Source: Acetomicrobium thermoterrenum DSM 13490 (GTDB taxonomy: Bacteria > Synergistota > Synergistia > Synergistales > Acetomicrobiaceae). Taken from it: a stretch of 64,000 nucleotides of DNA. The stretch covers positions 49,403 to 113,402 of the forward strand of contig NZ_FNPD01000006.1 in assembly GCF_900107215.1 (NCBI RefSeq), in the 5' to 3' direction. The notes beneath the pieces were generated by a model that was not told the origin of the DNA, ran no database searches, and saw only the letters and a list, made by a program, of their open reading frames with translations. The position numbers and the translations under genes are program-made. Shown in pieces: positions 1 to 46,570 of the stretch (its first letter is position 1; each line of letters begins with the position of its first letter).

Positions 1-108
1 CTTCGAACAGGCATAGGCCAAAAAAGAACTATCCAATCCGCCCGACAACAATATCAAGATGTTGTCGTATTTATTTATGTATTCCAACAACTTTGTCCAT
101 TTGGACAT
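1..108 (-). CDS. PP-loop ATPase family protein (SGGxDS motif), N-terminal fragment; the gene continues left of the window
   Basis: Minus-strand translation from ATG at 106-108 reads MSKWTKLLEYINKYDNILILLSGGLDSSFLAYACSK. This carries the SGGLDSS PP-loop seen in QueC, LarE and TIGR00268-type enzymes. AGAGGT Shine-Dalgarno sits 6 nt upstream. Confidence 0.45.
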   Translation of the reverse strand, partial: MSKWTKLLEYINKYDNILILLSGGLDSSFLAYACSK

Positions 109-314
109 CCTATTACCTCTTTTCGCCGTAGAGTGCTTCGCAGTTTATTATACATTTTGGCTTATAATAAGTGTAGAAAGTCTGCCGGTCCAGTCTTTAG
201 GTTGATGCATTTAGCCATTGATTGAAAAAGGTAGGCAAAATTACCCTTATCCCTTTTCGGGGTCATGAATTAATATTTAAAAAAACTATGACATTCTAGA
301 AGGATTTTATTTAA

Positions 315-3929: not shown

Positions 3930-3955
3930 GATCCCGCTTTACGTCGAGATTAGCC

Positions 3956-4924: not shown

Positions 4925-5119
4925 AATTTTTTTACGATTCTCCTTTGTGTGCTTTAATTTTATAAAGGTTTTTACAACACTTCATGGTAATATTATAATA
5001 TTAATAATTCCATGTCAAAGCAGCAGGATACCGTCTGCTCCTGTCCTCTTTGAGGCAGAAATGGCCTTTTGGGTGCGCCGTTTTAAAAATTGATATTTTG
5101 TAGAGGTGACTTCAGCCCA

Positions 5120-6205
5120 ATGAAGCTAATAAGCACGGAAAAGCTGAAACCGGGGATGATAGTAGCGCGTCCTATTATATCGGATGTAGGTATCCTCTTG
5201 CTTAATAGTGATGTAACACTCAATGATAGCCTGATAGAGCTCATAAAAAGAAGGGGCATTCCCTTTCTTTACGTCAAGGACGATAGGATAGATACAGACC
5301 TTAAACCCCTCATAGCGCCTGAGGATACGGCAAAGGCAGTATACGTCATCAAAAAAGCTTTTGACCAAGCCCTTCAAAGCAGCCTCAGGCGTTCCTCACA
5401 GATGAACCTGGAACTTCTGAATGATATAGTTTCAGGCATCGTGGAAATCATTTCAAGACAAAATGACCTGATCGTTCACCTAATTGACATTAAAAACGCC
5501 GATTCCTACACCTTCCAACATAGCCTCCAAGTTATGACCATCTCTCTCATGATCGGCAAGAGCCTGGACATGACCAAAAACCAGCTTCATAATCTGGGCA
5601 TGGGCGCGGTCCTGCACGACATAGGGAAGGTCGGAATTCCTAAGTCAATCTTGAACAAAGAAGGGCCTTTGACGGAGGAAGAGAGAAATATAGTAAGACA
5701 ACACCCCAAAACAGGTTTTGAATTGCTGCAGGATTGCCCGTTAGTTTGGCCCACGGCCAGGGCCGTCGTCCTGCAGCACCATGAAAAATGGGACGGCTCG
5801 GGTTACCCCCGAGGCCTTGCAGGAGAGGACATCCACATCTATTCTCGCATAGTAGCCCCAGTGAACGTTTACGATGCTTTGATATCGAAAAGGCCCTATC
5901 GAGAATCCATGCTCCCTCATCAAGCCTATTATTACATAAAGGGAAAAGCCGGCTTGTTGTTCGACCCCCTCGTGGTAGAAAAATTCCTAGATATAGTAGC
6001 CCCCTATCCGATTGGCACTTGGGTCAAACTAAACTCCGGCGAGATTGGATTGGTCACGTCGATAGAGCCAGGGAAAGTAGCCTATCCCGTGGTCAAGATC
6101 TTTTACGATAATAATTTAAAGCCTATGAAAAACCCAACCACAATATCCTTGTCCGAAAACTCAATATTATCTATAGATGAAGTTGTAGAGGAACCATCAG
6201 AATAA
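5120..6205 (+). CDS. HD-GYP domain c-di-GMP phosphodiesterase
   Basis: HDIGK and HHEKWDGSGYP motifs. Probable start is MKLISTEKL at 5120, with GAGGTGA Shine-Dalgarno 8 nt upstream; the ORF-track start at 5090 is likely an extension. Confidence 0.8.
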   Translation: MKLISTEKLKPGMIVARPIISDVGILLLNSDVTLNDSLIELIKRRGIPFLYVKDDRIDTDLKPLIAPEDTAKAVYVIKKAFDQALQSSLRRSSQMNLELLNDIVSGIVEIISRQNDLIVHLIDIKNADSYTFQHSLQVMTISLMIGKSLDMTKNQLHNLGMGAVLHDIGKVGIPKSILNKEGPLTEEERNIVRQHPKTGFELLQDCPLVWPTARAVVLQHHEKWDGSGYPRGLAGEDIHIYSRIVAPVNVYDALISKRPYRESMLPHQAYYYIKGKAGLLFDPLVVEKFLDIVAPYPIGTWVKLNSGEIGLVTSIEPGKVAYPVVKIFYDNNLKPMKNPTTISLSENSILSIDEVVEEPSE

Positions 6206-6226
6206 CATACGAAGGGGGATCGCTGA

Positions 6227-7225
6227 ATGTTTTTGCTTTGCATTGCCAACACCGAATTGAGCAAAATACCTAGCCTTTCTGCCGCAGGAGAAAACGTCGA
6301 AGCCATAAAGTACACAGTGCCTTCCGATGCAGAACTCGTCTATTGGGGAAAATGCCTCACAAGCTCTTTCCTGCCGGTCGACCCTGAAGGACATCCCACA
6401 CCTGCAATACTTACAAGGGCAGCTTACGAAGAGGCCCAATTTCCCGTTATGGTCGTAAGGACAGGAAGCTTCATCCCTCCCGCCTGTCCCTATGTAGAGA
6501 TATCGTCGACGCCCGGCGCAAATCCCCTAGAAAGACCTGCCGTAATTGAAGCGAAGAGAATATATTCCTGGGCAAAAACCTTGGGACATAACATATCGGC
6601 AATTGAGCCCCTTGTGGTCATAGGAGAATCCATACCTGGAGGGACCACCTCCGCATTTCTCGTTCTTAAGGCCCTGGGCTACGACGGCATGGTCTCCTCG
6701 GCAAGCCCCAAAAACCCGACGAACCTGAAAGTAGAGATTTGGAAAAAATGTTGTGAGGTCTACGGCATAAGCGAAGGTTCGCTTCGACATAAAGGGCTAG
6801 ATGCCCTCTCTCTTTTGGGAGATCCTATGCAGGCAGCGGTAGCAGGGATTGCCATGGGATCCTTTAACAGGTCTCGCGTTGTCCTTGCAGGCGGAACTCA
6901 AATGCTTGCCGTAGCAGCCATCTTGAGGCATGAAGGGTACAATGGGGAAATCGAGATAGCCACAACGAAATACGTGGCCACGGACAAGACGGCAAACTTC
7001 GCCGATTTGGCTGAAAGCCTGGGAATCAAAATTCATGTCGTTCCCGTCGACCTATCCCGCTCAGCCTTCAAAGGGCTTTCGGATTACGAAAGAGGTTACG
7101 TAAAGGAGGGCGTTGGCGCCGGAGGCGCCCTGTGGTATGCAACTTATCTGGGCCTTTCCCTTGATAGGTTGACCGACAAAATAGAGAAACTATACGACAA
7201 CTTAATCAAGGGTGCTCTTCAATGA
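6227..7225 (+). CDS. cobT: CobT-like nicotinate-nucleotide--dimethylbenzimidazole phosphoribosyltransferase (archaeal/UPF0284-type)
   Basis: GESIPGGTTSAF nucleotide-loop motif. Its stop overlaps the cobU start (ATGA) and cobS lies downstream. GAAGGGGG Shine-Dalgarno precedes the start. Confidence 0.55.
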   Translation: MFLLCIANTELSKIPSLSAAGENVEAIKYTVPSDAELVYWGKCLTSSFLPVDPEGHPTPAILTRAAYEEAQFPVMVVRTGSFIPPACPYVEISSTPGANPLERPAVIEAKRIYSWAKTLGHNISAIEPLVVIGESIPGGTTSAFLVLKALGYDGMVSSASPKNPTNLKVEIWKKCCEVYGISEGSLRHKGLDALSLLGDPMQAAVAGIAMGSFNRSRVVLAGGTQMLAVAAILRHEGYNGEIEIATTKYVATDKTANFADLAESLGIKIHVVPVDLSRSAFKGLSDYERGYVKEGVGAGGALWYATYLGLSLDRLTDKIEKLYDNLIKGALQ

Positions 7226-7776: not shown

Positions 7777-7890
7777 CTTCAGTGATTTGACAAAAGACGA
7801 GCGATGCTGGCCGCAAAAAAATTTTGCATATAAAATATCTTTTCAAGATAATGTAGAGGTAATTCACAAATTCCAAAAGGGGGGCTGGCC

Positions 7891-8637
7891 TTGCGCATAT
7901 TGGAGTTGATAGCGGCTTCATTTGCTTTTTTCAGCAGAATTCCCGTGCCTAAAATCCTTTTGCCCGAAAAAGAACCACCCTATGCCATGATTCTCGTCGT
8001 ATCTCCTCTAATGGGGGGATTCTTAGGCGCTATATGGGGAGGGATAGGGGCATTCCTCAGCTTGAGGTTTGCTGCGCTCGGTGCCGCCTGGGCCTCGGCA
8101 GTAGTATACGTCCTTTTGGGCTGGGGATTGCACCTGGACGGTCTGAGCGACATTGCCGACGGTTGGGCAAGCGGTAAAAGCGGTGAGGAAATGAGAGAGA
8201 TCGTGAAGGACAGCCGCTGCGGTCCCTATGGCGTTATGGCCCTGGTCTTGACCTTTGGCCTCTGGACTTCCCTCCTGTTCGCCCTCCCTTCATGGCGATG
8301 GATAACGATAGGAATGATAGTGAGCGCATCGGGCAAATGGGCGATGTGTTGCGCTGCCTGTATCGGCAATTGTCCTTGGAAGAACAGTATGGCCTTTTCT
8401 TTCGTTCAAAATTTTTCCCTCAAAGAAACCGCTTACGCTTTTGTCTGTTTTGTGTTAATCTTCTTCTTCGGACCTTGGATGTGGGTCTTGTCCTTTTTAG
8501 CGACGACGGTCGTAGGCGTCCTTATGTCCCTTTGGGCACAATACAGATTGGGGGGGATAAGCGGCGACGTCCTTGGGGCAACGGAGGTTTTGGGCGAAGT
8601 CCTTGCCCTTGCTGCTATAGCTTTATTTACGTCCTAA
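7891..8637 (+). CDS. cobS: Adenosylcobinamide-GDP ribazoletransferase (cobalamin synthase), polytopic membrane protein
   Basis: Multiple transmembrane segments and a CobS-like N-terminus (FFSRIPVP). Position directly after cobU. TTG start. Confidence 0.8.
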   Translation: MRILELIAASFAFFSRIPVPKILLPEKEPPYAMILVVSPLMGGFLGAIWGGIGAFLSLRFAALGAAWASAVVYVLLGWGLHLDGLSDIADGWASGKSGEEMREIVKDSRCGPYGVMALVLTFGLWTSLLFALPSWRWITIGMIVSASGKWAMCCAACIGNCPWKNSMAFSFVQNFSLKETAYAFVCFVLIFFFGPWMWVLSFLATTVVGVLMSLWAQYRLGGISGDVLGATEVLGEVLALAAIALFTS

Positions 8638-12865: not shown

Positions 12866-12886
12866 TATTTGAAAGGGGTGATTTGC

Positions 12887-13687
12887 ATGTGTCTTAAAAA
12901 ACTCATATCACGCAGTATAGAGCTTAATATAAAACGTCCCGACCGTCACGAAAATATGATCAAAAGAAGAAGAGACTTCCCTTTGATAATTATAGGTGAT
13001 CTCCACGGAGAGCGCGATTCCCTGAAAGAAATCTTAGAGATAACAAGCGACGAAAGAGATTCCCTTTTTCTATTTCTAGGGGATTACGTGGACAGGGGTC
13101 CAGATTGTATGGGCTTACTTGAAGACATCATCAACTTTCAAATAAACAACGGAGAAAGAGTGATATTGCTTCGAGGCAACCACGAAGATTGGGATATGAA
13201 TATACGCTATTCCTTCGCCAGCGAATTAATAGCCAAAGGCTACGAAGGGGTAATCGAAGATATTCTCTCCTGGTACGAGTCTCTGCCCTTAATTGCCCTT
13301 TTCGATGACGTTGTCGCTTTACACGGTGGCGTCCCAAAACCGATTCCCTCAAATATAGACGACCTTTCCGGAATAAGGGCCACCGATCCTTTGGGGATGC
13401 AAATTTTGTGGAACGACCCTCTGGACGAAGGCTATTGGCCCCGCGGAGGAGGGACAAAACCCTTTACCGCCGAAGATTTGGAAGCTTTTTTGAAGCTAAC
13501 AGGCGCGAAACTCCTGATAAGGGGACACCAATACGTACCTAACAGAGGGTATAAGTTTAATTTCGACAACAGATGTATGACCATCTTTTCCGCAAGCTAC
13601 GGGTACGGTTGGCCCAGATGCTTTGTTTATCTTCCTCCTTGCGATTTCAACGTAGGCGATGTGGAAAAATACATCATCCGGATATAA
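12887..13687 (+). CDS. PPP-family metallophosphoesterase (Ser/Thr phosphatase-like)
   Basis: GDLHG, GDYVDRG and GNHE motifs. ATG at 12887 has GAAAGGGG Shine-Dalgarno 8 nt upstream. The ORF-track start at 12773 would overlap the divergent DHH gene. Confidence 0.75.
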   Translation: MCLKKLISRSIELNIKRPDRHENMIKRRRDFPLIIIGDLHGERDSLKEILEITSDERDSLFLFLGDYVDRGPDCMGLLEDIINFQINNGERVILLRGNHEDWDMNIRYSFASELIAKGYEGVIEDILSWYESLPLIALFDDVVALHGGVPKPIPSNIDDLSGIRATDPLGMQILWNDPLDEGYWPRGGGTKPFTAEDLEAFLKLTGAKLLIRGHQYVPNRGYKFNFDNRCMTIFSASYGYGWPRCFVYLPPCDFNVGDVEKYIIRI

Positions 13688-13989
13688 GGATTCCCATATT
13701 TATTCACTATGGTGTGATCAATTAGCCAGTAAAGTTTCGATAACTTCGCAAAAAAACTTATACACAGTCGGTGAATAACCTGTGGATAACTACATAATCG
13801 CGCTCACTCACTATAAATTATATATTTCACTAAATTGGTTTTAATAATCGAAATCCCGTGGTTAACGCACAATTAAGAAAAAAGTTATCCACATATTTGG
13901 TCAATAACTTGTGTATATGTGGATAACTTTTGTGGAAAATATGTGGTAATATTTAGAATAACCTGTGGATAACCAAGGGGGGCCTTTTT
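13688..13989. other. oriC part 1: DnaA-box cluster upstream of dnaA
   Basis: Perfect TTATCCACA or its complement at 13781-13789, 13885-13893, 13918-13926 and 13964-13972. One- or two-mismatch boxes at 13758-66, 13770-78, 13931-39 and 13942-50. Confidence 0.85.
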
Positions 13990-24157: not shown

Positions 24158-24806
24158 TTAGGTTGAAGTTCAAGCCAGCCTTCTTGACCTTCGTCCTCAA
24201 TCTGCTTATATGAACGTCTATGGTCCTGGTCTCTCCAAGATATGTCCCCCACACCTTCGCCAGCAGCTGTTCCCTCGAGACTATCTTTGGTGCATTTTTC
24301 ATCAATATCTTTATCAGCTCAGTCTCTATGGGGGTTAGTACTATCTTTATATCCTCGTATGTCAGGATATCCGCATCAGCAATGAGTTCCAGCTTACCAA
24401 GCTTTATCGTTTCATTTTGAGGGGAAGCTGGATGGGCTCTGCGAAGGATGGTCTTAATTCTCGCGTGAAGTTCAGCCAGGGAAAAAGGTTTTTTTACGTA
24501 ATCGTCGGCACCAAGCTCTAAACCTTCAATGACGTCTCTTTCGTCGCGCCTTGCGGTCAGGATAATTATGGGTATATCCTTCGTTATGGGGTCTTTTTTA
24601 AGCCTCCTGCACACTTCCCAGCCGTCCATAATTGGCAACATGAGGTCTAATATGATCAAATCCGGCAACGACTCGTAACAAATCTCCAAAGCCCTATCTC
24701 CGTCTGCGGCCTTTATTATTTCATATCTCTGCATTGAGAGGTATTGGCTTAGGAGGGAAGCTATATTCTCTTCGTCTTCTACGAGAAGTATTTTTTCACC
24801 GCTCAA
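24096..24806 (-). CDS. phoB: OmpR/PhoB-family response regulator
   Basis: Receiver domain (LLVEDEENIA, DLIILDLMLP) plus winged-helix (RLRTKV, RGYRL). Confidence 0.85.
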   Translation of the reverse strand: MSGEKILLVEDEENIASLLSQYLSMQRYEIIKAADGDRALEICYESLPDLIILDLMLPIMDGWEVCRRLKKDPITKDIPIIILTARRDERDVIEGLELGADDYVKKPFSLAELHARIKTILRRAHPASPQNETIKLGKLELIADADILTYEDIKIVLTPIETELIKILMKNAPKIVSREQLLAKVWGTYLGETRTIDVHISRLRTKVKKAGLNFNLIETVRHRGYRLGGDINDEKH

Positions 24807-31598: not shown

Positions 31599-32411
31599 TT
31601 AGTCGACCAGCTTTAAAGGAACGGCAGCTTCCGGGGTGTTTACGTTAAACGTAAATGTTTCAGTATAATATAAGGATACTACTGTATCATTGTGCTCTTT
31701 ATAACCGATCGAGATGTCCTGTCCCGATACGAGCTCGAAATCTCCGCCGCGAAGGGAGACAACTATTCCGTCGTTTATCTGGGAAGATAGGATTATCCTG
31801 CTGTCGCCAAGAATGTCGCTGATTTTCTTGTAAAGGGGATAGCCTTCTCCTGCGGAGTATATCCTGGTATAAAGGGCCGGGCTTGCAACAAGGGCGTAGG
31901 GTCCTTCGATGCCGTGTAAGGTAAAATGCGCCCTTACCTGTGCCAAGCTTGCTAGGAGCTCCGATGGGTCTTGAAGGGGCAGTTCCTGGACAAACTCTTT
32001 TGAGGCAGCGAAAATGCCTTCTATGCAGGCATCGTCCAAACCATAGAATACTGCTTTATCTTCGAAGGATGCTATCTTTCTGGCTGCTTCTTCGAGACTA
32101 GAGAGATCGGGAGATTTGGAGCCTCTGGCTATACTGTCTAATTCGCATAGGGATAGCTCGAAGGGCACGTAAGCTTCTACCAAAGGCAAACTCAGGCGCG
32201 TAGCATAACAAACCTCTTTGGAGGCATCGCCCTTTTTAAGCTTTCCCGTCGGGTAGGCTGCATAGTCCCAACCCAGGGGGCCTATGAAATCCACAAACTT
32301 TCTTGCGGAGAGGTTCTGTTTTAATATCTCTTCCGATCTTTGGAGTATCTCTTCCCACGCAGGGTTATTTACGGGTGCAAGCTCTTTTTTTAAAAAATCC
32401 ATCTGATTCAT
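31599..32411 (-). CDS. Family-1 encapsulin nanocompartment shell protein (HK97 fold)
   Basis: Aligns along its full length to Thermotoga maritima encapsulin (FVDFIGPLGWDYAAYP, SLRGGDFELVSGQDISIGY, YYTETFTFNVNTPEA). Probable start is MDFLKK at 32402. Confidence 0.85.
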   Translation of the reverse strand: MNQMDFLKKELAPVNNPAWEEILQRSEEILKQNLSARKFVDFIGPLGWDYAAYPTGKLKKGDASKEVCYATRLSLPLVEAYVPFELSLCELDSIARGSKSPDLSSLEEAARKIASFEDKAVFYGLDDACIEGIFAASKEFVQELPLQDPSELLASLAQVRAHFTLHGIEGPYALVASPALYTRIYSAGEGYPLYKKISDILGDSRIILSSQINDGIVVSLRGGDFELVSGQDISIGYKEHNDTVVSLYYTETFTFNVNTPEAAVPLKLVD

Positions 32412-32418
32412 CCCTCCT

Positions 32419-32778
32419 TTACTTTTTAAGAGATCCGATGTTTAAGCTCGAAGGGGCTTTATCCTTCGAGGGTGTTTCGTTTGACGTCGCCGATTCTTCA
32501 ATTTCCGTAATGGGCTCTTCGGTAAAAAGGTAGGTACGAAGAGCTTCGTCCCAACTCGGCATATTTCGCCTCAGCCATTCGAGAAGCATGGCTGCGTGTT
32601 CCATTTCTTCGTCGCGATTATGCTCTACTACTGCTTTAATCGCTGGATCCTTTGTGGCTGCAGCTCTGTCGTTGTACCACATGACTGCCTCTATCTCTTC
32701 TTTGAGGCTGGCCAGGGCTCTGTGAAAATCTCTATCCTGTGCAGTGAGCTCTTCTACCGGTTCATGATATTCGGCCAT
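32419..32778 (-). CDS. Encapsulated ferritin-like cargo protein (EncFtn) with C-terminal targeting peptide
   Basis: HNRDEEMEHAAMLLEWLRRN matches the EncFtn di-iron site. The C-terminus SLNIGSLKK matches the encapsulin cargo-loading peptide. 7-nt gap to the shell gene. Confidence 0.85.
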   Translation of the reverse strand: MAEYHEPVEELTAQDRDFHRALASLKEEIEAVMWYNDRAAATKDPAIKAVVEHNRDEEMEHAAMLLEWLRRNMPSWDEALRTYLFTEEPITEIEESATSNETPSKDKAPSSLNIGSLKK

Positions 32779-32916: not shown

Positions 32917-33852
32917 ATGGAGAACAGGGAATTTCAAGTCGACGAAGCGACCGTCGATACTTCTTTAGATTGGTCGAGCCTCATTGCCTTGGCAGTTACT
33001 CTTTTAGTGTGGTCGTCGGCCTTCGCTGCGATAAAGGCAGCTCTAGAGCATTATACTCCTCTTCATCTTGCTGTCCTCCGTTTTATGATCTCTTCGCTGA
33101 TATTGCTTCCCTTCGTATTTTTTAAGTTCGGTTTGCCCCAATTAAAGGATCTCCCATTTATATTTTTTCTGAGCGCTACGGGCATGCTCCTTTACCATAT
33201 ACCGCTTTGCATTGGAGAACAGACGGTTGCGGCGGGTTCGGCAAGTCTCTTGATCGCCACGGCTCCCGTTTTCACTGCCATATTGGCCGTTATCATCTTA
33301 AAGGAAAAGATGAACCCTTTGGGCTGGGCCGGCATTATCATGAGCTTTACGGGAGCAGCCGTGATTTCACTTGGCGAAGGCGATTTTGGCCTGGAGTTGG
33401 GAGCTCTCTGGATTTTATGTGCGGCCTTTATGGAGTCCTTCTATTTCGTTTACCAGAAAAAGCTTTTACCTAAATATGGTGCCTTTCGTCTTACAACTTA
33501 TGTAATAATGGCCGGAACTATCTTGATGATCCCCTTTGGAAAGGACCTTTTGAAGGCGGTTATAACGGCACCTCCATCTGCCACTATCACTGTCGTGTAT
33601 CTCGCCATTTTCCCGACCTGCATCGGCTATGCGGGCTGGGCTTACGCCACTTCCAGAAATCCTGCCTCTCTGGTTGCCAGCAGTCTATTCCTGAATCCTG
33701 TAATGGCTATATTCATAGCTTGGATATGGCTGGACGAAATGCCCACTTTTATATCGATTATGGGTGGCGTAATCGCAATAGTTGGAGTTTGGATGTTGCA
33801 AAGATCTAGAAGGTCTGGCTCGATAGGGGATGTTTCTAAACGAAAAACATAA
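32917..33852 (+). CDS. DMT-superfamily (EamA-like) transporter
   Basis: Ten predicted transmembrane segments in two EamA repeats. Confidence 0.75.
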   Translation: MENREFQVDEATVDTSLDWSSLIALAVTLLVWSSAFAAIKAALEHYTPLHLAVLRFMISSLILLPFVFFKFGLPQLKDLPFIFFLSATGMLLYHIPLCIGEQTVAAGSASLLIATAPVFTAILAVIILKEKMNPLGWAGIIMSFTGAAVISLGEGDFGLELGALWILCAAFMESFYFVYQKKLLPKYGAFRLTTYVIMAGTILMIPFGKDLLKAVITAPPSATITVVYLAIFPTCIGYAGWAYATSRNPASLVASSLFLNPVMAIFIAWIWLDEMPTFISIMGGVIAIVGVWMLQRSRRSGSIGDVSKRKT

Positions 33853-33891
33853 TACCCAATTAGATTGATATTATAAATTTTAGATAATATT

Positions 33892-34251
33892 TTGTTATCT
33901 ATAGATTATAACATCGACATGATAAGTATAAGTACAAGTATAGAAGATATAAAAGAAGCACAAGAAGCATATGAAAATGAATTTTTAATGTATCAACCTA
34001 TAATAGAGGAAAAGGCTATGGACCTTTATAGTAAAAATCCTGCCGAGGCACAATCTTATTTGACGGATTACGTTAATGACAATATAAATAAGGTTGTTGA
34101 TGGTTGGTGGTCGCTAGCGCAAAGGCTTGTTGGAAAATATTGTGATGGTTATATAACCTATCCTGACGGAAAACAGGATGCTGTTGGATATCCCACGTGG
34201 TGGTTAGAGACTGTCGAATTTGGTAAGGAGGAAATGGAACCAAAGGAATAA
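33892..34251 (+). CDS. Hypothetical small acidic protein inside the AT-rich island
   Basis: ORF of 119 aa in a region of about 30% GC. No recognisable motif, and coding status uncertain. Confidence 0.3.
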   Translation: MLSIDYNIDMISISTSIEDIKEAQEAYENEFLMYQPIIEEKAMDLYSKNPAEAQSYLTDYVNDNINKVVDGWWSLAQRLVGKYCDGYITYPDGKQDAVGYPTWWLETVEFGKEEMEPKE

Positions 34252-34418
34252 GTTTCACTTAAAATATAAAAATCCACCTAAGTTGCTCTCTAAAATTATT
34301 TTTGTATTTCATTTTCAATACGGAGCTCAGGAGAAATTAATTGATAATGTCTATCACACAATAGAGAAGAAGTCTTCTCTATCGTGTGATATTATAATCA
34401 AATAAGAGGTGTAAAAAC

Positions 34419-35408
34419 ATAACCAGATACAAAATCCTTGTTACAGGAACAAGAGGAAAGAGCACTTTGGTAAGGTTAATGACGGCTGGGTTTAAGGCAT
34501 TAGGTATCTCCTGTTTTTCTCGTATTACCGGAGTCGTCCCGATGGAAATATTGCCCAGCGGTGTTCGGCAGATAGTCAGATCGAGAGAGGGGCATATCGA
34601 AGAGCTCCGGTGGTGGCTTTACCATGTGCCCGAAGATTCGGAAGCTATCGTCGTGGAAAACAGTGCTGTCTCCGCCGAGCTTCAGCCTCTGGCGGCAAAG
34701 TGGCTCAAGCCCAACCTAGTAATCTGGACCAACTTAAAGGAAGACCATCCAGAAGCTTGGGGTCCGACGAAAGAAGGTGCGATGCGGGCTTTGCTTTCTG
34801 GGATCCCGAAGGGCGTGCCTGTAGCATTGGGCCCTGACATGCATTTGGAAGAAAAATTGCACGGGATTTTAAAACAAAATCGTAACGAGGTTTTTTTGAC
34901 AGGAGATGCTGTAGATTTTGAGGAAGCAAATAAGGCTTTAGCTATAAATGCTCTAAAGACATATGGACTTAATGTAACAGAGGAATCTCTGAGCAGTAAT
35001 TTAACTGATGATCCAGGTAGATTTAGAGTTCTAAAGATGGGTAATGGTCTTCTGGCATGGGGTTTTTCGGCTAACGACGTAGAAAGCACCGTAAGCCTTC
35101 TTTTTTCCCTTAAATGGCAGAAAGAAGAGACTACTGTGCTTTTTAACAATCGTAGAGATAGGCCGGGAAGGCTGAAGGCGTTTGAACCATGGTTTAATAA
35201 TGCTCAGTACAAAGGTATTTACATTTGCGGTTCCCATCCCCTTCGTCATATAAAAGGTGCTAAATGGATTTATTTTAGGGATGTTGACGAGATCGTTTCT
35301 TTCGTGAGTGAAAGAGGTTTGGTTTTCGGTTGCGGTAATATAGCAGGATTGCCCCTTCGAGAACTGCTCTCTTATGAAGAGGTGAATTATATCTGCGACA
35401 GGATTTAA
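34419..35408 (+). CDS. pgsB: Poly-gamma-glutamate synthase PgsB/CapB-like amide ligase
   Basis: P-loop VTGTRGKST, ENSAVSAEL and LKEDHPE, collinear with B. subtilis PgsB. No ATG/GTG/TTG lies upstream of the P-loop. AAGAGGTG Shine-Dalgarno at 34404-11 sits 7 nt before in-frame ATA at 34419. The track's TTG at 34467 would cut the P-loop. Confidence 0.65.
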   Translation: MTRYKILVTGTRGKSTLVRLMTAGFKALGISCFSRITGVVPMEILPSGVRQIVRSREGHIEELRWWLYHVPEDSEAIVVENSAVSAELQPLAAKWLKPNLVIWTNLKEDHPEAWGPTKEGAMRALLSGIPKGVPVALGPDMHLEEKLHGILKQNRNEVFLTGDAVDFEEANKALAINALKTYGLNVTEESLSSNLTDDPGRFRVLKMGNGLLAWGFSANDVESTVSLLFSLKWQKEETTVLFNNRRDRPGRLKAFEPWFNNAQYKGIYICGSHPLRHIKGAKWIYFRDVDEIVSFVSERGLVFGCGNIAGLPLRELLSYEEVNYICDRI

Positions 35409-35806
35409 TCGTTATCGCTGTAAGTATAGCTTTAGGTTTGATATTTTATCGCAGGACAGGTGTAGCTACGGGAGGGATAATTTCGCCGGGCTTGCTGGCT
35501 TTGGGGCCATTTGCACCACGTACGTTTGCCTTCGTCATACTGAGTTCGCTTCTTGTACTCTCTTTACTGGAAGTCCTCGTCAGGGTTTTTGGCCTATACG
35601 GAAGGGAAAGGGTGTCCTTTGCTTTGCTCATCGCAGCATTGCTGGGCTTTTTCTCGAACCCCTTTTTACCATGGGTTGGATGGGTGGTCCCAGGCCTTAT
35701 CGCTGCTGACATGCAGCGTCAAGGCGTCATTCCAACGTCCTTGGCGCTGTTTGTCGTTACCGGATTATCTGTCTTAATGGGGAATTTGGTATATGAGATA
35801 TTTTAA
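35393..35806 (+). CDS. pgsC: Poly-gamma-glutamate synthase membrane component PgsC/CapC
   Basis: VPGLIAADMQRQG matches B. subtilis VPGLIANTIQKQG. The upstream in-frame DLIVIAVSIALGLIF matches the PgsC N-terminus DLYIALILGVLLSLIF, so the start must lie upstream of the TTG at 35438. Candidate start is CTG 35393, 8 nt after a second AAGAGGTG. Confidence 0.65.
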   Translation: MRQDLIVIAVSIALGLIFYRRTGVATGGIISPGLLALGPFAPRTFAFVILSSLLVLSLLEVLVRVFGLYGRERVSFALLIAALLGFFSNPFLPWVGWVVPGLIAADMQRQGVIPTSLALFVVTGLSVLMGNLVYEIF

Positions 35807-36869
35807 CGCCTTCGTGCGTGGCATATTTTCGATGATCCTGGGAAAGGACACAACTTTATCGCGAAGGTGTAACCTGTATCTTTTCATGCTTGCCGCCGTT
35901 ATATCTTTATTGGTGTGGTCCTGGCCTTCAGGAACTCTCACTGTCGAGGAGGAAAGGGTTTGGGATCGGATCAGAGAAGCTCAATTTTATCTTTACAGCT
36001 TAAAAACGCAAAGAGAAGGAGTTGCTCCCTCTCAAAGCTTGGACCCTTGGCAAAGCGGTCTTATCGGGACCGAATGGAGCATCATAACTACCACAGTGGG
36101 CTCTTTGGCGTCCAAACAGATTTCATGTAATCCCCTCTGGGGCGCGATCTTTCTGCGTTGGTTCGATAAGGCGGGACTAAAGCGAGGAGACAGGATTGCA
36201 ATCTTAAGCTCAGGTTCTTTTCCAGGTTTTTTGATATCTTCCCTGGTCGCCGCAGAGGAAAGGGGGTTAGATGTGCTGCTTGTTGTCTCGCTGGGCGCAT
36301 CTTCCTATGGCGCTAATGATCCGAATTTTCCTATCCCGATAATTCTAAGGGAACTGAGAAGGGCAGGATTTATCTCTACGAAGGCGGCTTTTTATACCTT
36401 TGGCGGAGACTACGAAATAGGAGCAGGCATTCCTCCGGATGGACTTGAAATATTGTCGCAATCTGCGATATCGGACGATGTACCGCTTTTACAAGCGAAG
36501 TCATTGCAAGAAGTGATTGATGCAAAGGTAGGACGTTTGGATATATTTAAACCTGCTTTGGTGGTGCAAATTGGCGGATCTCATGCAAATATGGGAACCG
36601 ACGATGCTGTATTGTCGTTACCACCAGGTTTTTTGGATTCAAGATATGCCGAACGCGCCGGCAATGGGGTTATAGGATTGGTCCTCAAAAGAGGAATACC
36701 AGTTATACATATGCTTAACGTCAAAAGTTTATGCCGGATGACCGGCGTTTCCGAAGGGGTAGAAGTTGCAAAGAAAGGACCGAAGCCCTTCAAATTTTCA
36801 AGGGCCTTTTTAGGCCTACTATTTTTTGCCGTCTTTTTGTATAAGTATGAGCGATGGGCCTTTGAGTAA
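35793..36869 (+). CDS. Membrane-anchored protein coupled to pgsBC (possible PGA-system accessory protein; not CapA-like)
   Basis: Overlaps the pgsC stop. One N-terminal transmembrane helix. No metallophosphatase motifs of CapA/PgsA. Confidence 0.4.
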   Translation: MRYFNAFVRGIFSMILGKDTTLSRRCNLYLFMLAAVISLLVWSWPSGTLTVEEERVWDRIREAQFYLYSLKTQREGVAPSQSLDPWQSGLIGTEWSIITTTVGSLASKQISCNPLWGAIFLRWFDKAGLKRGDRIAILSSGSFPGFLISSLVAAEERGLDVLLVVSLGASSYGANDPNFPIPIILRELRRAGFISTKAAFYTFGGDYEIGAGIPPDGLEILSQSAISDDVPLLQAKSLQEVIDAKVGRLDIFKPALVVQIGGSHANMGTDDAVLSLPPGFLDSRYAERAGNGVIGLVLKRGIPVIHMLNVKSLCRMTGVSEGVEVAKKGPKPFKFSRAFLGLLFFAVFLYKYERWAFE

Positions 36870-37069
36870 AGGTGTAAGTATCCTCTTTTTAAATGATATA
36901 CATAGCAGCTTAATATAACAATGAACTCGCCTTAATTCCTTTTTATATCAGGATAAAAATATATTTTTTTGATATTCGTGATACAATTAATCTTAACCTC
37001 TAAGTTCCTCTTTATTAAAAGATGTTGCGGAGGTGATTCGGAAGCGGGAGCTTCAAGGGGGTGTTTTGA

Positions 37070-38200
37070 TTGAATGACGAAAGATTTGATCGACTGGCCG
37101 GTGAGCTTTTGAGGCTCATAGAAATTCCAAGTCCGAGCGGAAATGAAGGACCTATCTTGGGATACCTCGAAAAAAGGCTGCAGTTTCTTGACCTTCCTTC
37201 AAAAAGGCAAATGATAACCGAAAATATGGGAAATTTAGTCTTTAACCCGGGTTCTAAGGTGTTGTTCGATCTTCATGTAGACACCGTTCCTGAAATCATG
37301 GAAGGTATTAAGTGTAACCCGTATCTGGACGGAGATTTGGTTTACGGCAGAGGGGCATCCGACATAAAAGGGTCAATAGCATCGCTCATAATTGCCCTGG
37401 AAGACTATGCACAGATAACCAAAGGGGATGTTGACTTTCCTGCGAGCATAGTTTTTACCGTCGACGAAGAACAGGGCGGCAGAGGAGCCTGCGAAGCAGT
37501 GAACCTAAAGCCGGAAGAGGTCATCGTCTTTGAGCCGACGGAGCTTGATATATGCACAATGGAAGCAGGAGCCATAGGAGTCAGACTGAATTTTTCAGGT
37601 AGGCCCGCCCATGGAAGCGATTTCGAGGCGGGAGAAAACGCCATTACAAAGGCCATCGAATTTTTGTCCAAATTGAAGGAATTACCCTTTCTCGAAGGGG
37701 AGCATCCTCGCATTGGCGAGGCCGGATTCAACGTGCAGGCTCTGTTTGGCGGTTCTGTCGACGAACTGGTCATTCCAAGCCGAAGCGAGATGTACGTCGA
37801 TTTCAGGTTATTGCCAGGGGTAGATCACAGAGAGGCAGAGATTCAGTTAAGGCAGTTCTTTGAGGAGAAGGGGGTCGACTACGAGATCGACGATGTCTCG
37901 CCTTCCTTTCAGTTGGACGATGAAGTTCCAATCGCCAGGAAACTTAAGGAAGTTGCTTCAGCAAAGTTAGGCCTGAGCTTGCAAACGGGAGCTTTTAAAA
38001 GTTGGAGCGATGCAGAGCCTTACGTTACAGCGGGCATCCCCGCGATAGTTTTTGGTCCAGGAAAGCTCTCCATATCCCATACGCCCTTTGAACACATCTC
38101 CTTGGGGGAAATGGATGTTGCAAGCAGGATTTTGACGGCCTTTTTGGCCTCCCTTACAGATATCTCGAGGGATGAGTTGAATATTTCAAGGGTTCGCTGA
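37070..38200 (+). CDS. M20-family metallopeptidase (ArgE/DapE-type deacylase)
   Basis: LFDLHVDTV and GRGASDIKGSIAS metal-binding motifs. Confidence 0.75.
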   Translation: MNDERFDRLAGELLRLIEIPSPSGNEGPILGYLEKRLQFLDLPSKRQMITENMGNLVFNPGSKVLFDLHVDTVPEIMEGIKCNPYLDGDLVYGRGASDIKGSIASLIIALEDYAQITKGDVDFPASIVFTVDEEQGGRGACEAVNLKPEEVIVFEPTELDICTMEAGAIGVRLNFSGRPAHGSDFEAGENAITKAIEFLSKLKELPFLEGEHPRIGEAGFNVQALFGGSVDELVIPSRSEMYVDFRLLPGVDHREAEIQLRQFFEEKGVDYEIDDVSPSFQLDDEVPIARKLKEVASAKLGLSLQTGAFKSWSDAEPYVTAGIPAIVFGPGKLSISHTPFEHISLGEMDVASRILTAFLASLTDISRDELNISRVR

Positions 38201-38215
38201 ACATTCAAAAATAAA

Positions 38216-38244
38216 GGCTGTTTTAGGTTAAACCTAAAACAGCC
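38216..38244. terminator. Bidirectional terminator between convergent M20 and GNAT genes
   Basis: GGCTGTTTTAGGTT/AACCTAAAACAGCC perfect 14-bp inverted repeat. Confidence 0.7.
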
Positions 38245-38268
38245 AATGTTAACTTAAAAAGCATCCCT

Positions 38269-38793
38269 TCAAAGATTTTTTATAAACCTTATCCATTTTC
38301 CTCTTTTTTCTTTTTCTTCGAAACCCTGGCTTTTGTAAAAATTTTGGGCGTGGAAATTCTTTTCGCCCGCCCACAGCTCTATCATCTTGACGCCTCTTTT
38401 AGCCAATAAGTCCACGGCCTTTTCCAATAGCAGTTTCCCGATTCTTTTGCCCTGGTAATCGGGGTCGACCAAGATTTCATGTATTTCTCCCACGATATGG
38501 CTCTCCGGGGAAAGCCATTTGTGGTCTATGGACACGAAACCTACGATTCGCGATCCGTCAAAGGCGACCAAAAAACCGCCATCGGCTCGCCTGTAAAGCC
38601 ATCCGAGATATCTTTTGATCGTCTCGATATCGGTGTCAGCGTACTCCTCTAAGCCTTTGTAAGCACGTCTGTAGAGGTCAACGATCTCCGATTCGTAGTC
38701 GGCGGGGTTCACGCTCTTTATTTCGATAGTACCTGAGGCCTCTCCCTGTTCAAAACCCCATGGCTCACCACCTCCTTCCCTAAAGAAATTCAT
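38269..38793 (-). CDS. GNAT-family N-acetyltransferase
   Basis: Acetyl-CoA binding motif QGKRIGKLLLEKA. Translationally coupled to murB. Confidence 0.75.
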   Translation of the reverse strand: MNFFREGGGEPWGFEQGEASGTIEIKSVNPADYESEIVDLYRRAYKGLEEYADTDIETIKRYLGWLYRRADGGFLVAFDGSRIVGFVSIDHKWLSPESHIVGEIHEILVDPDYQGKRIGKLLLEKAVDLLAKRGVKMIELWAGEKNFHAQNFYKSQGFEEKEKRGKWIRFIKNL

Positions 38794-39736
38794 GTAAAGG
38801 CGCTATCTTTCCCTTGGGGGTAACATACCTTACCTCGCATTCGAGCCAAAAACCAGTCCTTTTGTGGACTGTCTCTCTAATCATGGAAATTAGCTCGAAG
38901 GCGTCTTTGCAGCGCCCGCCTCCCACATTAACTATAAAGTTGGCATGCATTGTGCTAACCATGAGCCCCCCCACGCGAAGTCCCTTCAAACCCGCCTCTT
39001 CTATTATCTTGCCCGGCGGGCCGCATACTTCGTATATTTCCGCATTGTTCGTGAAGACGGAGCCGCAACTTGGAAATTTAAGGGGAAATTTGCATTTTCG
39101 CTCGGCCAGTATGTCTAAAATGCGCCTTTTGATGTTTTTGGGGTCATCGCCTTTGCCCTCGATGCAGGCCTTGAGGATTACATAATTTTTTCTTTGAAAA
39201 AGAGAGCTGCGATAAGAAAATTCGCACTTATCGCGAGATATCTCGATGAGATTTGCACTTTCGTCCAAAGCCAAAACGCTTTTTACATTATCGCCGATTG
39301 AACGCCTCAAGCTGCCTCCATTCATGTAGATAAGCCCGCCCAAGGTACCAGGTATTCCGCTGACGTGCTCAAGTCCCGAGATGCCTTTTGAGGCGGCGAT
39401 CTTTGCCAAGCGAGGAGTCCACACACCGGCATCGGCGACAATACTTGTGCCGCTTGTCCGAACACTTGCGAAGGCTTTGCCGAATTTTGCCACTATGCCA
39501 CGCAGGCCTTCGTCGGGAAAAAGTATATTGCTTCCCCTTCCGATGACGATAAAGGGGATGTCCCACTCCTTGGCGAAGACGATCAACTTCTGCAGGGAGG
39601 GTATGTCGCTCACATTTACCAACACATCGGCAGGTCCGCCGATCTTCCAGCTCGAGTGGAGGGCCAGCGGCTCGTCTTTTTTTAGGTCCTTTATGCCTAT
39701 TTCTCTCAGTCTGTTGGCCAATATTTCAAGTTTCAA
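38780..39736 (-). CDS. murB: UDP-N-acetylenolpyruvoylglucosamine reductase
   Basis: FAD-binding PCMH domain (WKIGGPADVLV, IGRGSNILF) and C-terminal MurB domain. Confidence 0.85.
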   Translation of the reverse strand: MKLEILANRLREIGIKDLKKDEPLALHSSWKIGGPADVLVNVSDIPSLQKLIVFAKEWDIPFIVIGRGSNILFPDEGLRGIVAKFGKAFASVRTSGTSIVADAGVWTPRLAKIAASKGISGLEHVSGIPGTLGGLIYMNGGSLRRSIGDNVKSVLALDESANLIEISRDKCEFSYRSSLFQRKNYVILKACIEGKGDDPKNIKRRILDILAERKCKFPLKFPSCGSVFTNNAEIYEVCGPPGKIIEEAGLKGLRVGGLMVSTMHANFIVNVGGGRCKDAFELISMIRETVHKRTGFWLECEVRYVTPKGKIAPLHEFL

Positions 39737-39928
39737 TTCTATCCCTCATGTCTGCTTTGTATGTGAGATGCTCGACATTTCGTCTCGTAATAGGATATCA
39801 AACTTTCGTCATATTTCTAGGGGGAACTTCTCGAAAAAAAAGCTTCCTTCCAGAGCGCGATTTATCCTCATTAATATAATACAATATACAGATAATTTAC
39901 TTTTAAAGCGTAGTATAATATAAAAAAC

Positions 39929-40462
39929 ATGTTACTAGTCAAACATATCACTATCACTAAAGAAGGGAAAGAGGTGAGGTGTGTGACTAAAGGCACTAAA
40001 GAAGTCGAGCTCGACATTAAGGAGCTAGAGGATATCGTAAACAAGGCTAAGGAAGAGAATTTAGGTTTAATACCTCTGCTCCAGAGAACCCAGGAGGTAA
40101 TCGGCTATTTGCCGAAGGAGACCCTGGTAGTATTGTCGGAGATGTTGCACCTTCCCTACAGCAAGGTCTTCGGAGTAGCTACATTTTATGCACAGTTCCA
40201 TTTGACGCCAAGAGGACGTCACGTGATCCAACAATGCGACGGTACTGCCTGCCATGTCAAGGGAGGTCCCAGGATAAGGCGTGTCATAGAGGAAAAATTG
40301 GGCATCTCTCCCGGCGAAACTACCGAGGATTTGAAGGCTACATACGAGATCGTCTATTGTTTGGGTTCCTGCGGCCTGGCGCCAGCTGCAATGATCGATG
40401 GCAAGGTGATTGGAAGGCTGACTCAGGAGAAAATGAAGAGAATTTTAGATTCGATGGAGTGA
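39929..40462 (+). CDS. NuoE/HoxE-like [2Fe-2S] thioredoxin-fold subunit (StnA/HndA-like)
   Basis: CDGTACHVKG....CLGSCGLAPA four-cysteine motif. Confidence 0.8.
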   Translation: MLLVKHITITKEGKEVRCVTKGTKEVELDIKELEDIVNKAKEENLGLIPLLQRTQEVIGYLPKETLVVLSEMLHLPYSKVFGVATFYAQFHLTPRGRHVIQQCDGTACHVKGGPRIRRVIEEKLGISPGETTEDLKATYEIVYCLGSCGLAPAAMIDGKVIGRLTQEKMKRILDSME

Positions 40463-40472
40463 GGGGAGCGAA

Positions 40473-40874
40473 ATGTGCAGCTTTAAGTTGAAAGGCCCCG
40501 AGGATCTTGAGAAGTTGGCCGAAGAGGCCAGGAAGGAGCTGGTAATTAGGGAGGGTGCTGAATTTACGGTAAAAGTCTTCATCGGATCGCTAAATAACAG
40601 AGAGACATATAAAAAAGTGGCCAAGGCCTTTGTGGATGAAACGAAAAGGGCTAACGTCAGAGCCAGGGTGATAATTGCAGAGGGTGAAGCTGCTTCTGGT
40701 TTCGACCCCCTCGTCGAGATAAATACACCGCGGGACGGCGTTGTTCTTTACGCAAACATCACTCCCGACAAAGTTCCCATCCTGGTAAGAGAGCATTTGG
40801 TAAGGGGAAAAATTGTTTCTGAGTGGATCATCTCTCAGAAGCGCAGCCAGCATGTGCTCTTTAGCTGGCATTAA
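40473..40874 (+). CDS. Small HndB-like thioredoxin-fold protein lacking cluster-binding cysteines
   Basis: Sits between the NuoE-like and NuoF-like genes, as hndB does in hnd operons. Only one Cys in 133 aa. Confidence 0.35.
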   Translation: MCSFKLKGPEDLEKLAEEARKELVIREGAEFTVKVFIGSLNNRETYKKVAKAFVDETKRANVRARVIIAEGEAASGFDPLVEINTPRDGVVLYANITPDKVPILVREHLVRGKIVSEWIISQKRSQHVLFSWH

Positions 40875-45752: not shown

Positions 45753-45791
45753 ACCGTAACATTAAATTAGTATATGTCCTTAAAATATAAT

Positions 45792-45828
45792 ATATGGGAA
45801 TGTCTCAGACATTCCCATATATTTTTAG
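45792..45828 (+). terminator. Rho-independent terminator after the stn-like operon
   Basis: ATATGGGAATGTCT/AGACATTCCCATAT perfect palindrome followed by ATTTTT. Confidence 0.65.
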
Positions 45829-45865
45829 GATATATATTATTATTTTATTTAAAAGCTATTATCGC

Positions 45866-46024
45866 TTATGCCGTCAATGAAACCTGACTCATCTCAACGG
45901 GTTGCATATCTTTAATCCAATCGCCGTTCTCGTCTTTAAACCATGTGCCATAGCTTCCAAATATTTCGGTAAAAAGAGTATCTTGTAATATAAACCAGTT
46001 ACCGCTTTTATCTTTCAACCACAT
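45866..46024 (-). CDS. Small orphan protein (52 aa) with a tandem W-x-KD-x-x-G-[ND]-W repeat
   Basis: GGGAGG Shine-Dalgarno sits 9 nt before ATG at 46024. Translation is MWLKDKSGNWFILQDTLFTEIFGSYGTWFKDENGDWIKDMQPVEMSQVSLTA. Below the 60-aa cut-off of the ORF track. Confidence 0.4.
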   Translation of the reverse strand: MWLKDKSGNWFILQDTLFTEIFGSYGTWFKDENGDWIKDMQPVEMSQVSLTA

Positions 46025-46332
46025 ATTTAAAACCTCCCAACCAGGAAAATTTTTTGGTGAAAATCAGCCCTTCCTTGTTGTGAGGCTTCGTCTTATTCGT
46101 CCTGGGCGTCGAAAGAAACCGTTCATATCTGTGATCCCCCTTTTTTCCTTGGAAGATTTATATCACATCCGAAGAACATTGTCAACTTAGGTTTACTAAA
46201 AATCTATAAATCTTATATAAGTTTATGCAATCGTTTGCATTTCGATCCCTTGCGCTTTATTAGCGGCCGAACGCTTTTTTTGCTATAATATATTTGGCTT
46301 AATAAAGTGGATACCCCGATGGAGGTCCTGTC

Positions 46333-46524
46333 TTGAAATTTTCGTCTAATAACGATGATTTTGCTTTTTTGGGTGACGTTGTGGCTTTGATCAATGCAGA
46401 GAAAGGTGCGTTGATCTACATGCGGAATGGGAAGATACTGGAGACAGATAAAAGCGTCAAGGCATTGAAGAGAAAATACGAGGAAATCTTGGATTATTAT
46501 CAAAAAAATTGGCGGGATAGATAA
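46333..46524 (+). CDS. Small protein immediately upstream of gyrB, possibly DUF370/RemB-like
   Basis: 63 aa. [18 protein letters not shown] loosely fits the DUF370 core. The slot directly before gyrB is conserved for this family in Firmicutes. Confidence 0.35.
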
Positions 46525-46570
46525 AACCAAGACTATGGGATATGAAATGCAAAGGGGAAGTGGTGAGTCG

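Follow-up and report, generated by a model that had tools for sequence, protein, structure and literature searches.

An AT-rich island upstream of a pgsB-like gene in Acetomicrobium thermoterrenum is very probably the scar of a 6.8-kb deletion

Introduction

Why does a 0.6-kb stretch of unusually AT-rich DNA stand directly upstream of a pgsB-like gene in Acetomicrobium thermoterrenum DSM 13490, and did it come from elsewhere, does it serve the downstream genes, or does it descend from something that once stood there? We addressed this question in a 64,000-nucleotide stretch of the genome (contig NZ_FNPD01000006.1, positions 49,403 to 113,402), called the window below, whose numbering is used unless another contig is named. 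The AT-rich stretch (33853-34466), hereafter the island, has a gene for an EamA-family transporter as its left neighbor (32917-33852, plus strand). Its right edge is set by a pgsB-like gene of the Mur ligase family, which itself lies outside the island (34419-35408, plus strand; 329 codons if read from an ATA codon) and opens a same-strand tandem cluster encoding the PgsB-like protein, PgsC/CapC, a TIGR04332 "poly-gamma-glutamate system protein" (sys), and an M20 peptidase. An earlier note on this DNA had described an orphan reading frame and a perfect inverted repeat in the island, and had offered three explanations for it: a horizontally acquired insertion, a regulatory leader for the pgs operon, or a remnant of the 5' end of pgsB. 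Comparison with related genomes and metagenomic contigs leads us to a different reading, in which the island is very probably the scar of an ~6.8-kb deletion and consists of the remnant of a C69 dipeptidase gene together with native intergenic DNA.

Results

The reading frame in the island matches the tail of a C69 dipeptidase

The island holds an open reading frame (ORF) of 119 codons on the plus strand (ORF119, 33892-34251), which begins with TTG and encodes an acidic product (pI 4.1; 24 Asp and Glu versus 9 Lys and Arg residues) with four Trp. Its position, acidity, and tryptophans are as previously described; its description as an orphan does not hold. A word-indexed protein search with ORF119 returned only two matches, an identical 110-aa call and an 86-aa variant, and Pfam and NCBIfam scans gave nothing significant (neither PF03577 nor NF033678) for ORF119, nor anything for a 61-aa ORF nearby (34220-34405, plus strand). 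The orphan reading drawn from the word-indexed search was overturned by an exhaustive HMMER search, which yielded 370 hits at E values up to 0.001. Full-length proteins among these hits are ~540-580 aa long and are matched over their C-terminal 100 residues, and those that were checked are C69 peptidases.

In Acetomicrobium mobile DSM 13181 (CP003198), the gene preceding pgsB encodes a 547-aa Peptidase_C69 protein that ends in ...VGYPTWWLETVDFGKEEMEPKQ*, almost as ORF119 does. BLASTP aligns residues 17-119 of ORF119 with residues 445-547 of this protein at 73% identity and 93% positives, with no gaps (E 3e-56). A search with the full A. mobile protein, in which hits were ranked by likeness to the island's fragment, found an intact 548-aa protein (P0274) encoded on the metagenomic contig L019 described below; its last 103 residues agree with the fragment at 100 of 103 positions (97%). 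Homology and the position directly upstream of pgsB together identify the segment at 33940-34251 (plus strand, 312 bp) as derived from a C69 dipeptidase gene, of which it retains codons 446-548 and the stop codon. We refer to this segment as the relic.

In intact relatives, the Pfam C69 model spans residues ~25-453, and solved dipeptidases (5IAU, 5IMG, 5IMH) align at residues 26-447, including the nucleophile Cys of "aCTTILVGK". Domain libraries missed the relic because the Pfam model ends near residue 453 and the structures near residue 447, and the relic begins at residue 446. The whole catalytic Ntn-hydrolase core, with its N-terminal nucleophile Cys, is absent from the relic, which, judged by what it retains, cannot be a peptidase.

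The first 16 codons of ORF119 belong to the spacer downstream of EamA and are fused in frame to the relic. A hexamer microsatellite, (ATAAGT)n, lies at the point of fusion (33922-33942; 3.5 copies by Tandem Repeats Finder), and its translation supplies the ISIS... repeat that opens the chimeric ORF. ORF119 owes its existence to a junction that keeps the relic in frame with two candidate start codons of the spacer, TTG 33892 and ATG 33919; no Shine-Dalgarno sequence precedes either of them, whereas pgsB has AAGAGGTG. We consider ORF119 a chance chimera that is probably not a gene and that appears not to be expressed.

The metagenome library also contains dozens of "proteins" of ~105-117 aa (P0123, P0132, P0157, P0194, and others) that start at a conserved internal Met (MIKDIK...) of C69 tails. 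Probably, these are gene calls cut short where contigs are fragmentary or frameshifted.

A related contig retains the DNA that the window lacks

L019 is a 13.4-kb metagenomic contig (JGI 3300013884) that is ~95% identical to the window. It encodes, in order, a C69 protein (508 aa), a DUF6305 protein, p442, p54, p387, a second C69 protein (548 aa), pgsB and the rest of the pgs cluster, M20, GNAT, MurB, and 2Fe-2S proteins; p387 has a weak AstE/AspA-like match, and gene calls in the pgs region of the contig are fragmentary. From the pgs cluster onward, this gene order is that of the window. L019 6846-13417 aligns with window 33939-40512 at 94.8% identity, and L019 nt 1-45 align with window 33897-33940, in the spacer directly downstream of EamA (33853-33938, plus strand) that forms the left flank of the deletion. 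Both flanks of the island are thus present in L019, 6.8 kb apart, and the window therefore corresponds to L019 minus nt ~46-6845. In the alignment, the junction falls at 33939/33940 with at most 2-3 nt of microhomology. The deleted DNA held two C69 genes (the second up to codon 445), the DUF6305 gene, and three other genes, and tblastn searches for the proteins of this cassette found no further trace of them within the window.

In L019, A. mobile (L005-L008), and L023, the gene that directly precedes pgsB is an intact C69 gene. Because the gene of which the window has a fragment is intact at the same place in all three, the difference is a deletion and not an insertion. No mobility genes flank the junction. 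The homology, the junction, and the polarity of the deletion are established by these comparisons, as are the nested later deletions and the purifying selection on pgsB described below. The earlier note had reasoned that relatives carrying the same AT-rich segment would mark it as native; in substance this is what L019 provides, with the segment there forming part of an intact native gene.

The ancestral arrangement, very probably that which L019 retains, comprised the EamA spacer, C69, DUF6305, p442, p54, p387, C69, a 167-bp spacer with a hairpin, and pgsB-pgsC-TIGR04332-M20. Illegitimate recombination with almost no microhomology would have joined the EamA-downstream spacer to codon 446 of the second C69 gene, leaving behind 86 bp of intergenic DNA, the last 103 dipeptidase codons stripped of catalytic domain, promoter, and ribosome-binding site, and an unchanged pgsB upstream region. 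The open 119-codon frame would then be a matter of chance, the relic being young and the junction in frame.

The low GC content of the island is inherited

The G+C (GC) content of 33853-34466 is 0.322, versus 0.466 over the whole 64-kb window. The lowest of all 600-bp segments starts at 33851 (GC 0.318, or ~3.7 standard deviations below the mean of 0.466, with a standard deviation of 0.04), in agreement with the AT-rich stretch first described here. The flanks had been put at about 50% GC and fall short of this, at 0.467 for EamA and 0.447 for pgsB. Within the island, GC is 0.21 in the EamA-downstream spacer, 0.37 in the relic, and 0.28 in the spacer between the relic and pgsB; across the window, spacers of at least 60 bp have a mean GC of 0.37, versus 0.47 for coding DNA.

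At codon positions 1 and 2, the relic has the same GC as the A. mobile C69 gene (0.52 and 0.30), with GC at third positions (GC3) of 0.29 versus 0.505. AT-biased decay after truncation was considered as the cause of the low GC3 and rejected, as the same codons of the intact L019 gene are equally low (0.31 versus 0.29); the whole L019 cassette has a GC of 0.40-0.43. As the tail of the intact gene has the same AT-richness and the remaining two parts of the island are intergenic, the low GC is inherited, and is neither an effect of pseudogenization nor a mark of foreign origin.

The compositional deviation itself is real, and the other features of a genomic island are missing. Searches of plasmid and phage DNA collections with the island gave no match, a tRNA scan of the whole window found no tRNA genes, no integrase or transposase is encoded among the window's ORFs, and there are no flanking direct repeats of note at the island.

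Two short exact direct repeats bracket the island. One of 11 nt (TGATATTATAA, 33866-33876 and 34387-34397) resembles an extended -10 element, and one of 10 nt (AAAAACATAA, 33843-33852 and 34413-34422) lies at the end of EamA and in the start region of pgsB. Both may be chance matches between AT-rich sequences or similar promoter elements.

Further deletions distinguish closely related strains

A Logan contig from SRR4136398 has 100% identity to the window across the 2.6 kb that were compared. The window's M20 gene is 95-97% identical to those of two metagenome-assembled genomes (MAGs), Acetomicrobium sp. UBA3949 (L013) and UBA5826 (L014), and its PgsB-like protein is 65-66% identical to those of A. 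mobile DSM 13181 and Acetomicrobium sp. MAGs. The 6.8-kb junction is common to the window, L014, and contigs from three samples (L001-L003). The microsatellite at the junction varies in copy number or sequence among the window, L001-L003 (12 extra bases), L014 (another variant), and L019.

L001-L003 and L014 carry an additional 247-bp deletion (~34098-34344, with ends ambiguous by ~9 nt), a length not divisible by three. Lost with it are the last 47 codons of ORF119 and most of the following spacer, and the remainder is fused to another frame, giving the 86-aa protein P0002. The same fused tail is seen in a 59-aa protein from the exhaustive search (P0135), whose source is probably another strain with the 247-bp deletion. 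L013, which is 97% identical to the window, has instead two clean deletions with short microhomology, of 1291 bp (33860-35150) and 720 bp (35540-36259), with breakpoints at L013 6803/6804 and 7192. As a result, L013 has neither the island nor the first 730 bp of pgsB, and it also lacks most of pgsC and the beginning of the TIGR04332 gene. Unless L013 is a MAG assembly artifact, some strains are losing their poly-gamma-glutamate-type cluster. In more distant syntenic Acetomicrobium sp. contigs (L009-L012), the relic is absent and the gap between EamA and pgsB is 130 bp.

We compared the window with L014 and L001 by the ratio of nonsynonymous to synonymous substitution rates (dN/dS). Values are low for EamA (0.15-0.21), pgsB (0.24-0.30, with no gaps), pgsC (0.06-0.23), sys (0.13-0.25), and M20 (0.18-0.19); the half of the relic that is shared gives 0.51-0.64, from only 7-8 changes. 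The strain deletions, the absence of the relic from L009-L012, and these ratios point to a young, unconstrained relic and show the pgs genes to be functional in the window's lineage.

The pgsB-like gene probably starts at an AUA codon

The gene that follows the island passes the Mur_ligase_M model (31 bits, cut-off 24) and falls well below the TIGR04012 PgsB equivalog threshold (94.5 bits versus a cut-off of 222.7). By these profiles, its product is best described as a PgsB-like Mur-ligase-family protein of ~330 aa from a distinct Synergistota clade. The genes after it score 77 bits with the CapC Pfam model (cut-off 27) and 350.9 bits with TIGR04332 (cut-off 100), so that the tandem genes at 34419-36869 constitute a poly-gamma-glutamate cluster with TIGR04332. 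A literature search for Acetomicrobium or Synergistetes together with PgsB or poly-gamma-glutamate found no papers.

No ATG, GTG, or TTG codon lies between the stop codon at 34395-34397 and the P-loop codons (GTRGKS, 34443-34460), and the first canonical start, TTG 34467, comes after the P-loop. The lack of a canonical start had been noted previously and is confirmed; its suggested link to the island is not, because L019, in which nothing is deleted, has the same ATA. A Shine-Dalgarno sequence, AAGAGGTG (34404-34411, plus strand), stands 7 nt before ATA 34419 and is invariant in L001-L004, L014, and L019. The complete arrangement AAGAGGTG-N7-ATA is found in the window, in L001-L004, and in L019 with its intact C69 gene, and L014 differs only at the base just before the ATA.

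Homologous proteins begin with MKAKYRVLVTGTRGKS and similar sequences, and A. mobile and L023 have a TTG start one codon upstream of the position of the window's ATA. Between the window and L011, a species diverged by ~30%, the 16 codons from the ATA to the end of the P-loop show nine synonymous differences and four conservative replacements, and conservation ends upstream of the ATA/ATT codon; the mostly synonymous character of the differences from this codon on indicates that the segment is translated. L011 (4969-5003) has ATT at the homologous codon and an ATA 6 nt after its own Shine-Dalgarno sequence, and its sole canonical option is a GTG without a Shine-Dalgarno sequence, four codons before the P-loop. 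The most economical reading of these patterns is that pgsB translation would be initiated at AUA.

Several public calls for this pgsB (288-313 aa) begin past the P-loop and are truncated because gene callers do not accept an ATA start. A truncated 311-aa call (P0008) had suggested that non-canonical starts recur in the A. mobile-like lineage; we rejected this, as the contig has a normal TTG that the caller missed. In E. coli, AUA supports ~1-2% of the initiation seen with AUG (bioRxiv 10.1101/063800). It is possible, though we regard the idea as tentative and rather doubtful, that the AUA start acts as a built-in translational throttle on poly-gamma-glutamate synthesis that may be sensitive to initiation factor 3 (IF3) or growth state.

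A stable hairpin precedes pgsB

Between the C69 stop codon and pgsB lies a native spacer of 167 bp (34252-34418, plus strand), the pgsB upstream region, which is collinear with L019, apart from one 1-nt and one 3-nt indel, and ~95% identical to it. The perfect 10-bp inverted repeat ATAGAGAAGA-ag-TCTTCTCTAT at 34361-34382 is present as first reported and lies at the center of a longer repeat, whose 19-nt arms (34352-34370 and 34373-34391) show 95% complementarity. As RNA, this palindrome (34352-34391, plus strand, with one A.C mismatch) folds into a hairpin of -22.8 kcal/mol (z = -7.4), and none of 200 shuffled sequences folds as well.

The hairpin is kept in L019 (-24.1 kcal/mol), L014, and L001-L003, from whose versions that of the window is separated by four transitions. 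Two of these turn a C-G pair close to the outer stem end (34354/34389) into T-A, a third changes G.U to A-U, and the fourth creates the A.C mismatch. One pair is thus altered on both sides between strains, a single event that is nonetheless suggestive. Judged by G.U wobbles, the hairpin would favor the minus strand in the window and the plus strand in L019. The L011 hairpin is weak (-9.2 kcal/mol, z -1.3). At the same position, A. mobile has an unrelated hairpin (-26.4 kcal/mol) followed by a U-tract, CUUCUGGUUUUG, which has the form of a standard intrinsic terminator for its C69 gene.

Set against the features of such terminators, the window hairpin has the stable stem-loop and lacks the G+C-rich stem and U-run, its tail being TATTATAATC where A. 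mobile has CTTCTGGTTTTG; a terminator consensus scan of 33600-34700 found no terminator-like site. A promoter consensus scan found six promoter-like sites, versus 3.6 +/- 1.9 in shuffled sequences. Reading the sequence directly, we noted a candidate extended -10-like motif directly 3' of the hairpin, TGATATTATAAT (34387-34398, plus strand), which has no -35 match and hence went unreported by the scan. The hairpin ends 13 nt before the Shine-Dalgarno sequence and ~28 nt before the ATA. The 247-bp deletion ends ~8 nt before the hairpin and spares the stretch from hairpin to pgsB, a pattern that would be compatible with a promoter in this stretch. Rfam 15 gave no hit for the whole window at the gathering score, and with E values up to 10 the island gave only chance matches to eukaryotic snoRNA and miRNA families (15-25 bits versus thresholds of 35-100). 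The hairpin probably served as terminator for the C69 gene that once preceded it, or acts as an insulator in front of pgsB, and the last 167 bp, as native pgsB upstream region, are plausibly the only part of the island with a function.

Neighboring loci

The cassette of DUF6305, ~440-aa, 54-58-aa, and ~390-aa proteins adjoins the pgs cluster in A. mobile and in L019, with a C69 dipeptidase gene following it. It was seen at L019 449-7158, L005/L006 1-4893, L018 6705-8981, and in L020-L022. In Dethiosulfovibrio peptidovorans, the cassette lies downstream of the pgs cluster, and no C69 gene appears before the contig view breaks off; a further Acetomicrobium sp. carries the cassette and its C69 gene together at a different location. 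A family match, and a weak one (AstE/AspA-like), was obtained for the ~390-aa protein alone. We speculate that the cassette may be a conserved partner module for the turnover of peptides or poly-gamma-glutamate.

Just upstream of EamA, on the minus strand (31599-32778), are genes for an encapsulin (Linocin_M18 family, 270 aa) and an EncFtn-like ferritin cargo protein (119 aa), a pair that is conserved in the syntenic contigs L004 and L009-L012. The second most AT-rich stretch of the window is 782 bp without a long ORF (45753-46534, GC 0.36), between a NuoG/formate-dehydrogenase-like gene and gyrB; it contains a perfect 17-bp palindrome (45789-45823), at which the L013 and L014 alignments break or invert. 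Three other stretches of 0.5-1.1 kb lack an ORF of at least 110 aa (12866-13989, 24158-24802, and 7777-8291) and may represent further decayed genes or short genes.

Discussion

Our comparisons indicate that the island arose through ordinary gene decay, and that it is neither acquired DNA, nor an orphan gene, nor a remnant of pgsB. Several observations weigh against this account and should be kept in mind. L019 begins inside the spacer downstream of EamA, so that EamA itself is unseen there and the link to the left flank is the 45-nt match. The comparators for the deletions are all metagenomic contigs or MAGs, any single one of which could be an assembly artifact; the deletion alleles recur in independent samples. 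Finally, the relic is still an uninterrupted frame of 103 codons, and its dN/dS derives from only 7-8 substitutions, leaving room for residual function.

Horizontal acquisition between EamA and pgsB, the first of the earlier proposals, could draw on the island's GC, the lowest in the window, and on the mere 130 bp present at the site in L009-L012. Yet the right-hand 480 bp line up throughout with a native gene and spacer of L019 and share homology with A. mobile, and the left 86 bp also have their counterpart in L019 through the 45-nt match. Given also the same low GC3 in the intact gene tail and the lack of mobility genes, tRNA genes, notable flanking repeats, and plasmid or phage matches, we regard insertion as extremely unlikely; the sequence is native to the lineage and was exposed by a deletion. 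The proposal of a degraded pgsB 5' end, with the ORF at 34220-34405 as a former N-terminal membrane segment, was right that the island holds a remnant and mistaken about the gene, the remnant having come from the 3' end of the C69 dipeptidase gene that stood upstream. The 61-aa ORF does contain a hydrophobic stretch, and Bacillus PgsB has an N-terminal hydrophobic segment before its P-loop. However, such a segment is absent from the PgsB-like proteins of this Synergistota family, whose N-termini lie 4-20 residues ahead of the P-loop, and the N-terminus of the A. mobile protein, MKAKYRVLVTGTRGKS, corresponds in position to the ATA of the window. The ORF, moreover, has no family match, is broken by a 1-nt indel in L019, and is mostly deleted in L001-L003 and L014; we regard it as non-coding and see virtually no chance that it is the lost start of pgsB.

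The idea of a leader fares better in part. What survives of it is the last 167 bp, with a very stable, conserved hairpin that includes one two-sided pair change, and the Shine-Dalgarno sequence ahead of the ATA. That the whole 0.6 kb should be a long 5' leader or regulatory region under selection, such as a riboswitch or attenuator, is very unlikely: 312 bp are demonstrably a gene fragment, 247 bp are dispensable in sister strains whose pgsB, pgsC, and sys remain under purifying selection, no Rfam family matches even at E up to 10, and the different hairpin and U-tract of A. mobile are typical of a plain terminator. We find it highly unlikely that ORF119 encodes a functional small protein, that is, a C-terminal dipeptidase fragment co-opted after the deletion. 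The frame is open for 119 codons, and the many ~105-117-aa library proteins that begin at an internal C69 Met could be stand-alone versions of such a domain. These short proteins are more simply explained as truncated calls, with P0123 differing very little from the C-terminal tail of full-length P0275. Against a small protein, too, are the missing Shine-Dalgarno sequences, the dN/dS of 0.5-0.6, the complete absence of the catalytic core, and the sister strains, in which a frameshift removes the C-terminal half or, in one case, everything is lost.

The deletion scar documents a stepwise loss within one Acetomicrobium species group, from an intact cassette, through the 6.8-kb deletion, to the further loss of 247 bp, while in a separate strain (L013) the loss extends to pgsB, pgsC, and sys. 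If pgsB translation is indeed throttled through its start codon, such strain-level deletions would uncouple the synthetase from the neighboring peptidase cassette. The locus also carries a caution for annotation. An AT-rich, orphan-like ORF beside a seemingly start-less gene suggests a foreign insertion, and here is best explained as an ordinary deletion scar, whose homology was missed by word search and by Pfam and NCBIfam and revealed only by exhaustive search and comparison of neighboring loci.

Among known systems, the island most resembles the truncated-gene remnants of bacteria. Like them, it is a 3' fragment that has lost promoter, ribosome-binding site, and catalytic domain, with an intact ortholog at the same position in close relatives, nested further deletions in sister strains, and the minimal junction microhomology typical of illegitimate recombination. 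It differs in that the relic is young enough for its frame to have stayed open and in that, by chance, the junction puts this frame in register with a start codon of the spacer, creating an orphan-like ORF. With the C69 dipeptidases (PF03577, NF033678), as represented by A. mobile, the relic shares 73% identity over its last 103 residues; it lacks residues 1-445, including the nucleophile Cys and the part covered by the Pfam model and the structures.

The two elements downstream of the relic each recall a familiar system in part. The hairpin is like a Rho-independent terminator in being a very stable stem-loop ~100 nt past the former upstream gene's stop codon, and unlike one in that it has few G-C pairs and is followed by UAUUAUAAUC, with no clean U-run. 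The E. coli genes infC and pcnB start at the near-cognate codon AUU. The window's pgsB is similar in having a strong Shine-Dalgarno sequence followed by a near-cognate ATA, with no canonical start before the P-loop; it differs in that its AUA start is a prediction from the sequence, which gives no sign of autoregulation or IF3 dependence.

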